From Escherichia coli (GTDB taxonomy: Bacteria > Pseudomonadota > Gammaproteobacteria > Enterobacterales > Enterobacteriaceae): a stretch of 39,954 nucleotides of DNA. The notes beneath the pieces were generated by a model. It was given only the letters and a program-made list of their open reading frames with translations. It did no database searches and was not told the DNA's origin. Numbering within the stretch: position 1 is the first letter of the stretch; every line of letters begins with the position of its first letter. The translations under genes were made by a program, and so were the position numbers. The DNA lies in NCBI RefSeq assembly GCF_003334255.1, contig NZ_QOWU01000053.1. One strand, written 5' to 3'. This document shows, piece by piece, positions 7,917 through 8,714 of this stretch.

Positions 7917-8664
7917 AACTTGCTCCTTAGCCGTTATCGTTTCGAATATGTCATCCTTTTCATTATTTACATCCTTGTCCGAATCGTTGTTCAATATAGT
8001 AAACGCCTATAAGAACTTTACCCTTCGTGAACTAATACGTCTATTAACACTAATCAATACTTCAGATTTATCCATCACGCACTCCATATATTGATCCTAA
8101 GTAAGATTCCTGGTTGTTATCAGCTTGTAAATAGCAAACAAAAAGTTAACGTTTGCGGATTACTGCCCAAGAATAAGTTATCAATAACCAGTTTGTGATC
8201 TCTGAAGAATATTACTAAAGTTAAAATGTAATCCGATTTAAATATCGAGTCTCCTTGTTTCGACTTAAGCTGGCAATTGGATTGCCAGCTTTCTTTTAAC
8301 GCATTGAAATTACCTGAGTAAATAACGCATTCATGTCTTCAGGTTTTTATATAGCGTCTGGAGACACGGATATTTATGCAATGTAATCAACGCCAGTTGC
8401 AAAAAAATGAACCCGGATTACTTATTTAACCGCCCATAGCATCAACGCTTACGGAACTCTTTGTTCACTTTCCCACAGCACTTTTAAAACATTAAACCTG
8501 ACTACGGAAAATATCAGCCATGATAATGTTTGAAATGGCTAATTTGCCATAGAGTGAAAAAAATTAGATGAAATTCAGTAGGTTGAAATAATCACTAGCA
8601 GGTAATTATTTCAATGATAGTGCGCAATTGATCTACAACACTGCGTAGCGGAGAGAGTATTAAT
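7917..8664 (-). promoter_or_regulatory. Long AT-rich gadE upstream control region
   Basis: About 750 bp of visibly AT-rich non-coding DNA between hdeD 3' end and the gadE start; gadE is known to have a long multi-promoter upstream region. Individual promoters not located. Confidence 0.5.
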
Positions 8665-8697
8665 CGGATCATAGTCACATCAAGTGACTATGATCCG
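8665..8697 (-). terminator. Perfect 14-bp inverted repeat downstream of hdeD (candidate terminator)
   Basis: cggatcatagtcac / atcaa / gtgactatgatccg, 17 nt past the hdeD stop; U-richness after it on the minus strand is weak. Confidence 0.4.
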
Positions 8698-8714
8698 GGT
8701 GACAACCGGGGTAA

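Follow-up and report, generated by a model that had tools for sequence, protein, structure and literature searches.

The DNA between hdeD and gadE in the window (the whole 39,954-nucleotide stretch that was analysed) is the hdeD-gadE 'sensory integration region' of the Escherichia coli acid fitness island, in its K-12 form. Our full reading is that this region carries the small RNA ArrS, antisense to the gadE leader, and, at its far end, a hairpin that closes the 3' part of the hdeD mRNA, with release of RNA polymerase by Rho downstream of it; we give this reading as a whole a probability of about 0.9. The identification of the region and of ArrS, taken by itself, is practically certain. The flanking genes and the interval between them are the following:

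7389-7916, minus strand: gadE coding sequence, from the open reading frame listing and comparison with RefSeq
7923-7928, minus strand: gadE Shine-Dalgarno sequence AAGGAG, read from the sequence
7917-8714, no strand assigned: hdeD-gadE intergenic 'sensory integration' region, 798 bp, 36% G+C
8715-9287, minus strand: hdeD coding sequence, from the open reading frame listing and comparison with RefSeq

The coordinates of the two coding sequences set the gap at 7917-8714, exactly 798 bp, a length that agrees with the '798 bp intergenic region' given for the gadE control region in PMC3708157. A sequence-only reading of this DNA had described about 800 bp of non-coding, AT-rich DNA in front of gadE, and both properties were borne out. 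The G+C content is 36.1% in the interval versus 47.6% in the whole window, and a 200-nt profile across the interval stays at a steady 0.33-0.38. Open reading frames of at least 30 amino acids inside the interval are mechanical. A 63-amino-acid plus-strand frame lies at 7903-8094 and a mechanical frame of 201 amino acids starts from TTG at 7994, the latter being an in-frame upstream extension of gadE. In other Escherichia species a 1-nt indel near 7985 shifts the reading frame of both, and a coding role for the plus-strand frame and for the TTG-7994 extension was rejected on this ground. Because the extension is frameshifted, the ATG at 7916 is supported as the true start of gadE.

Positions 5782-10782 of the window are the reverse complement of MG1655 NC_000913.3 3655500-3660500 with 2 SNPs, and the interval 7917-8714 is 100% identical to MG1655, with zero mismatches. 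Both differences within the compared 5 kb lie in genes, at 6850 (mdtE, T for C) and at 10071 (hdeB, C for T). The 798 bp are also identical to those of K-12 derivatives, e.g. NEB Turbo and MC4100. A match to the interval was found in 5414 of 5426 complete E. coli genomes, at 95-100% identity and chromosomal in every case; the other 12 had no match. In E. coli strain 3059 (NZ_CP103559.1 249330-249553) the match is limited to query positions 567-790 of the interval, and the annotated feature lying under it is a Tn3-family transposase, which suggests an insertion or rearrangement within the gadE control region of this strain.

The region had further been read as a multi-promoter, H-NS-silenced one. 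Published 5' ends of gadE transcripts lie at −21 (T), −124 (T1), −317/−324 (T2) and −566 (T3) relative to the ATG (PMC3708157). Window positions were obtained arithmetically from these offsets and the MG1655 coordinate map, and all of them fall within the interval:

8482, minus strand: gadE T3 start (−566), from the PMC3708157 offset
8233/8240, minus strand: gadE T2 5' ends (−317/−324), from the PMC3708157 offset, inside the ArrS-complementary segment
8040, minus strand: gadE T1 start (−124), from the PMC3708157 offset
7937, minus strand: gadE 5' end 'T' (−21), probably a processing product (PMC3708157)
8081-8100, minus strand: GAD-box-like TTAGGATCAATATATGGAGT, at −41 to −60 of T1, read from the sequence

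Silencing is supported by the literature, in which H-NS represses gadE promoters P1 and P3 (PMC3708157) and H-NS/StpA-dependent protein occupancy covers the gadE control locus. In our reading, gadE(-mdtEF) is driven on the minus strand from T3 at 8482, T2 at 8233/8240 and T1 at 8040, on AT-rich control DNA that H-NS/StpA silence and many activators open. The same 798 bp and the same start-site offsets define the gadE sensory integration region with its P1-P3/T1-T3 arrangement (Sayed & Foster 2009; Ma et al. 2004), likewise AT-rich and H-NS-repressed, and no differences were seen. The 798 bp in front of gadE serve as a textbook example of how signals are integrated on silenced DNA, and in their correct recognition the annotation of the entire acid fitness island of the window has its anchor.

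Consensus scans were less informative about individual sites. The GAD-box-like TTAGGATCAATATATGGAGT matches 11 of 20 consensus positions and includes a perfect TTAGGAT half; from its sequence we consider it a candidate for the P1 GAD box. Over the interval the GAD-box consensus scan reached 11-13 of 20 matches at best and returned no confident GadE site, including the one reported for arrS. A scan with the sigma-70 consensus found 7 sites in the interval versus 7.6 expected, none at the published start sites; it is uninformative because the gadE promoters are weak and activator-dependent. The published Cappable-seq supplements contain no entries for the gadE control locus.

ArrS had been expected in the gadE leader on the plus strand. 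Three features describe the gene here:

8228-8297, plus strand: arrS (b4704), a 70-nt small RNA antisense to the gadE T3 leader, RefSeq ncRNA 3657985-3658054 (-)
8267-8298, plus strand: ArrS Rho-independent terminator, from terminator scan, repeat search and fold
8193-8221, plus strand: putative ArrS promoter, from the sequence upstream of +1

RefSeq arrS maps to 8228-8297 of the plus strand at 100% identity, with the sequence GTAATCCGATTTAAATATCGAGTCTCCTTGTTTCGACTTAAGCTGGCAATTGGATTGCCAGCTTTCTTTT, which confirms both the strand and the location that had been anticipated. Comparison with arrS and with the gadE promoters had been proposed as the way to check the sequence-only reading, and both match within the interval. 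In the 3' part of the RNA, a perfect 11-bp stem, AAGCUGGCAAU/AUUGCCAGCUU, closes a 3-nt loop and is followed by UUUCUUUU; stem-loop and tail together make up the last 31 nt. The terminator folds at −20.2 kcal/mol (z −3.8) and was detected by the terminator scan, the repeat search and the fold. Term-seq data (PMC7815308 supplement 1) place the 3' end of ArrS at 8297 in M63 medium (982,952 reads) and at 8298 in LB at OD 2.0 (171,112 reads). With its hairpin, U-tract and Term-seq 3' end, ArrS is a discrete transcript ending at a canonical intrinsic terminator, a class that the structure at 8267-8298 fits fully. This is the ArrS gene known from E. coli K-12 (b4704; Aiso et al. 2011, 2014), with which it agrees fully in sequence, strand, terminator and placement relative to gadE.

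Upstream of the ArrS +1, TTGTGA (8193-8198) and TAAAGT (8216-8221) stand 17 nt apart; position −13 is C, and positions −6 to −4 read TAA. Judged by its sequence, this would be the ArrS promoter, with a sigma-S-like −10 element, in agreement with the reported dependence of ArrS on sigma-S and GadE (PMC6755755); ArrS transcription would then probably start at a sigma-S-type promoter.

According to published work, ArrS is induced by acid and in stationary phase and is associated with Hfq. It is described as an Hfq-dependent trans-acting small RNA on cfa (PMC6755755) and other acid-response genes, and the loop of its terminator is reported to be needed for repression of fepA (PMC11979758). On gadE it is reported to act via RNase III cutting of the duplex between ArrS and the gadE leader, affecting gadE mRNA stability. 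Following this literature, the ArrS:T3 duplex would be cut by RNase III with a rise in gadE expression as the outcome, and cfa and fepA would be further targets of ArrS, reached in trans with the help of Hfq.

The geometry of the locus agrees with the published description of ArrS as complementary to the longest gadE leader. ArrS (8228-8297) sits on the opposite strand between the T3 start at 8482 and the gadE ATG at 7916. The whole 70-nt complement of ArrS is contained in T3 transcripts; the T2 ends overlap ArrS by only 6-13 nt. Full complementarity to ArrS is confined to the longest (T3) gadE leader. In the papers on ArrS, T2 is reportedly attributed to processing of T3.

A scan of 7917-8714 against Rfam, on both strands and at both the gathering threshold and E<=10, produced no ArrS hit. 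At E<=10 the interval gave only noise (a Tetrahymena snoRNA and a microRNA family on the palindrome), none of it near a gathering score, and Rfam appears to be without an ArrS family. Because Rfam is silent here, the placement of ArrS rests on annotation and Term-seq. ArrS can be placed to the base, although the gene would escape detection by a family scan alone.

The first 8 nt of ArrS, GTAATCCG (8228-8235), recur twice as the reverse complement, CGGATTAC, in the T3 leader region, so that copies of the 8-mer lie at 8156-8163, 8228-8235 and 8414-8421. As a functional element the 8-mer was set aside: it is unconserved outside E. coli and was treated as probable chance.

At the hdeD end of the interval, a perfect 14-bp inverted repeat at 8665-8697 had been pointed out and interpreted either as the hdeD terminator or as a protein-binding site. 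The features that bear on this interpretation are:

8665-8697, minus strand: hdeD mRNA 3' stem-loop, a perfect 14-bp stem with 7 G-C pairs and a 5-nt loop
8661, minus strand: hdeD-sense RNA 3' end, Term-seq in M63, record 3657621 (+), 1150 reads, classed 'orphan' (PMC7815308 supplement 1)
8549-8664, minus strand: spacer with C>G ending in a Rho-dependent termination region (PMC7815308 supplement 2)

The repeat itself is real. Its arms, CGGATCATAGTCAC (8665-8678) and GTGACTATGATCCG (8684-8697), are 100% complementary over 14 nt and enclose the loop ATCAA; a perfect stem of 14 bp was reached in 0 of 300 shuffles of the interval, for which the mode was 6. The hairpin begins 17 nt past the hdeD stop codon and, folded on the hdeD strand, has an energy of −26.1 kcal/mol (z −6.2). 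A REP-type or mobile-repeat origin of the palindrome was rejected, as the repeat is present in one copy per genome.

An RNA 3' end at 8661, called in one of three Term-seq conditions, lies 4 nt past the stem of the hairpin and 54 nt past the hdeD coding sequence. To this extent the first interpretation stood: the repeat marks the 3' end of the hdeD mRNA. It did not stand as regards the manner of termination. No U-tract is found 3' of the hairpin, the tail being AUUAAUAC on the hdeD strand (3 U in 8) and GGUGACAA on the other strand, and the terminator scan calls the hairpin on neither strand. Because no U-tract follows, the repeat is not a canonical intrinsic terminator, with which it shares the stem-loop only. 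A Rho termination point was recorded farther on, at 8549 (record 3657733 +), with a Rho score of 6.8 and a significance of 2e-20, and reads downstream of this region rise from 28 to 475 with bicyclomycin, i.e. 17-fold (PMC7815308 supplement 2). The Rho region lies about 112 nt downstream of the 3' end at 8661, the former having been measured in LB and the latter in M63. The minus-strand RNA running from 8664 to 8549 contains 25 C and 13 G, and its G content drops to 5-8% around 8594-8535.

Between the hdeD hairpin and the Rho region, at 8583-8614, there is another inverted repeat, this one AT-rich, of 13 bp and 92% complementary. It was rejected as a functional element, since natural variants break its stem without compensation.

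The hdeD arrangement resembles a known class. In Rho-dependent transcripts, a stable stem-loop without U-tract has been described that carries the steady-state 3' end at its base and has a rut site just downstream (Dar & Sorek 2018, PMC6061677). The hdeD hairpin is likewise stable and U-less, with a precise 3' end just downstream of it, beyond which come a stretch with more C than G and a region sensitive to bicyclomycin; the protection, and the Rho dependence of the end at 8661, are what we infer from this likeness. We favour, as the likelier interpretation by a fair measure, that the repeat is the protective 3' stem-loop of a Rho-terminated hdeD mRNA, which would shield the message from exonucleases. 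RNA polymerase would read past the hairpin, and Rho would release it some 110 nt on, near 8549 and before P3. The hdeD transcript would then be trimmed back to the hairpin by 3'-to-5' exonucleases, leaving the stable end at 8661. Together the hairpin and the Rho site would make the hdeD mRNA more stable and shield the gadE control region from transcription running on out of hdeD. In the literature examined, hdeD was not found named as an example of a protective stem-loop. Apart from this refinement for the hdeD repeat, which adds one more member to a known class, everything described here was already known, and the current understanding is unchanged by these results.

The most serious competitor is a conventional intrinsic terminator of hdeD, at which transcription would stop near 8661 with no factor involved. 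A strong hairpin right after the hdeD stop codon, an RNA 3' end 4 nt past its stem and a tail whose first three bases are A-U-U are what such a terminator would offer, but the tail AUUAAUAC has 3 U in 8 and the terminator scan is negative on both strands. The 17-fold increase in downstream reads with bicyclomycin, in a Rho region 112 nt on, further indicates that polymerase passes the hairpin, and the geometry matches that of the U-less protective stem-loops of PMC6061677. We consider an intrinsic terminator unlikely here.

Next, the locus was compared across Escherichia. Seven more E. coli loci were included, and one genome of each species was scanned with GadE; the divergent sequences came from E. 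albertii, E. whittamii, two further Escherichia species and the divergent 'E. coli' E69. Across 11 distinct Escherichia sequences, 94.8% of the stem cells of the hdeD hairpin pair. Three pairs of the stem have changed on both sides (C-G>U-A, G-C>C-G and A-U>C-G); pairing in the stem is kept, and free divergence is seen in the loop and in the two flanks. Since the two inner double changes are common to the same four lineages, the double changes represent few independent events. At one internal pair of the stem, E. albertii, E. whittamii and E1V33 have A.C when it is read in the hdeD sense and G.U in the opposite sense, so the strand of the hairpin is not assignable from covariation alone. Taken as a property of the aligned sequences, the covariation shows selection for pairing, and nothing further. 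The fit of the palindrome to the class of protective stem-loops, with its covariation across Escherichia, suggests a conserved insulator between hdeD and the gadE promoters.

The other half of the original interpretation, a protein-binding site, is disfavoured by the same comparison. The site would here be a DNA palindrome that a dimeric regulator recognises, at the distal end of the DNA controlling gadE. In its favour are the perfect palindrome, its position in a stretch that many regulators and nucleoid proteins occupy according to published work, and the fact that symmetric substitutions would preserve a palindromic site as well as a stem. Yet three pairs change base identity with pairing kept, which is unusual for a sequence-specific operator, the loop varies freely, and an RNA 3' end sits right at the base of the repeat. 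The literature examined reports no regulator site at the repeat. We regard a protein-binding site as improbable, more so than an intrinsic terminator, and retain the protective stem-loop as the preferred reading.

In the divergent lineages, a block from gadE to just past the ArrS terminator (~7857-8300) is 89-90% identical, and this conserved gadE-proximal block ends exactly at ArrS. The ~75 nt right after the ArrS terminator (8300-8375) are deleted in E. albertii, E. whittamii, E69 and E1V33. Beyond ArrS the identity is ~71%, except for one segment:

~8466-8547, minus strand: conserved P3 core, conserved in divergent Escherichia, with flanks ~71% identical

To the published picture of the sensory integration region the comparison therefore adds that conservation outside E. 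coli is limited to the gadE-proximal half through ArrS and to the P3 core.

ArrS itself shows no difference at all in 4096 of 5412 E. coli genomes, is at least 95% identical in the remainder, and hardly varies in E. albertii, E. whittamii and other Escherichia. The sole natural variant in its terminator stem, 8268 A>G, occurs in B2-type E. coli and in E. albertii; it gives G.U in the plus-strand RNA and a C.A mismatch in the minus-strand RNA. Because pairing is kept on the plus strand alone, this pattern fits selection on the ArrS terminator. That ArrS is a functionless by-product of pervasive antisense transcription, as might be supposed from the many spurious promoters of AT-rich, H-NS-silenced DNA and from published phenotypes obtained mostly by overexpression, is very hard to reconcile with a gene and terminator nearly invariant across Escherichia next to DNA that is deleted or ~71% identical, with the very high Term-seq count (982,952), with the published behaviour of an Hfq-bound small RNA with acid-response targets, and with mutations that affect control of cfa and fepA (PMC6755755, PMC11979758).

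Between T1 and ArrS, the segment 8117-8166 is hypervariable: when 8 E. coli sequences are compared, 12 of its 50 nt vary, as against 0-3 variable sites in the adjoining bins.

One more RNA end was found on the gadE strand within the ArrS segment:

8263, minus strand: minor gadE-sense RNA 3' end, Term-seq in M63, record 3658019 (+), 1432 reads, classed 'antisense arrS'

It lies 4 nt beyond the ArrS terminator palindrome read in reverse, within the region of the ArrS:T3 duplex, and the terminator hairpin folds on the minus strand too, at −16 kcal/mol. A premature end, attenuation or RNase III cleavage of the T3 leader could each account for the 8263 end; alternatively, with an antisense RNA ~700-fold more abundant next to it, the end could be an artefact.

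A wider and rather speculative reading, which we think doubtful, joins the two perfect palindromes as RNA-level gates on the gadE strand, the hdeD hairpin with its Rho site being an insulator and the ArrS terminator being bidirectional. In that event the hairpin and Rho site, as a conserved insulator, would stop read-through from hdeD before it enters P3, and Rho activity would set how much hdeD transcription feeds gadE. The ArrS terminator would end ArrS on the plus strand and yield the gadE-sense end at 8263 on the minus strand. The T3 leader would be attenuated or cleaved exactly where ArrS pairs, with ArrS deciding between a dead-end leader fragment and a stable T2 mRNA.

Within the same island, the closest parallel to ArrS is the GadY/gadXW pair. 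GadY, like ArrS, is an Hfq-binding small RNA antisense to the mRNA of an acid-resistance regulator, and RNase III processing and trans action are found in both. The overlap is with an intergenic 3'UTR/5'UTR junction for GadY and with a long 5' leader for ArrS, and the two have no sequence similarity.

In the GadE-based comparison, two sequences outside Escherichia look like assembly contamination. An E. coli-like gadE sequence is present in NZ_JAUFQN010000010.1 (Flavobacterium paronense), with 98.6% DNA identity across the region, and NZ_JARVKW010000110.1 (Streptomyces sp. DH24) encodes GadE residues 106-175 as 100% identical protein.

Rfam matches to other RNAs were obtained elsewhere in the window. 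The GadY family matches 1308-1421 on the minus strand with 150 bits. A match to ES205 at 7200-7271 on the minus strand (105 bits) coincides with RefSeq gadF, a small RNA from the gadE 3' UTR (7200-7290), for which Term-seq gives a 3' end at 7201. Two copies of AgrB were found on the minus strand, at 16706-16789 and 16937-17020 (108 and 106 bits, respectively), and ES036 matches 25798-25838, also on the minus strand, with 42 bits, just over its threshold.
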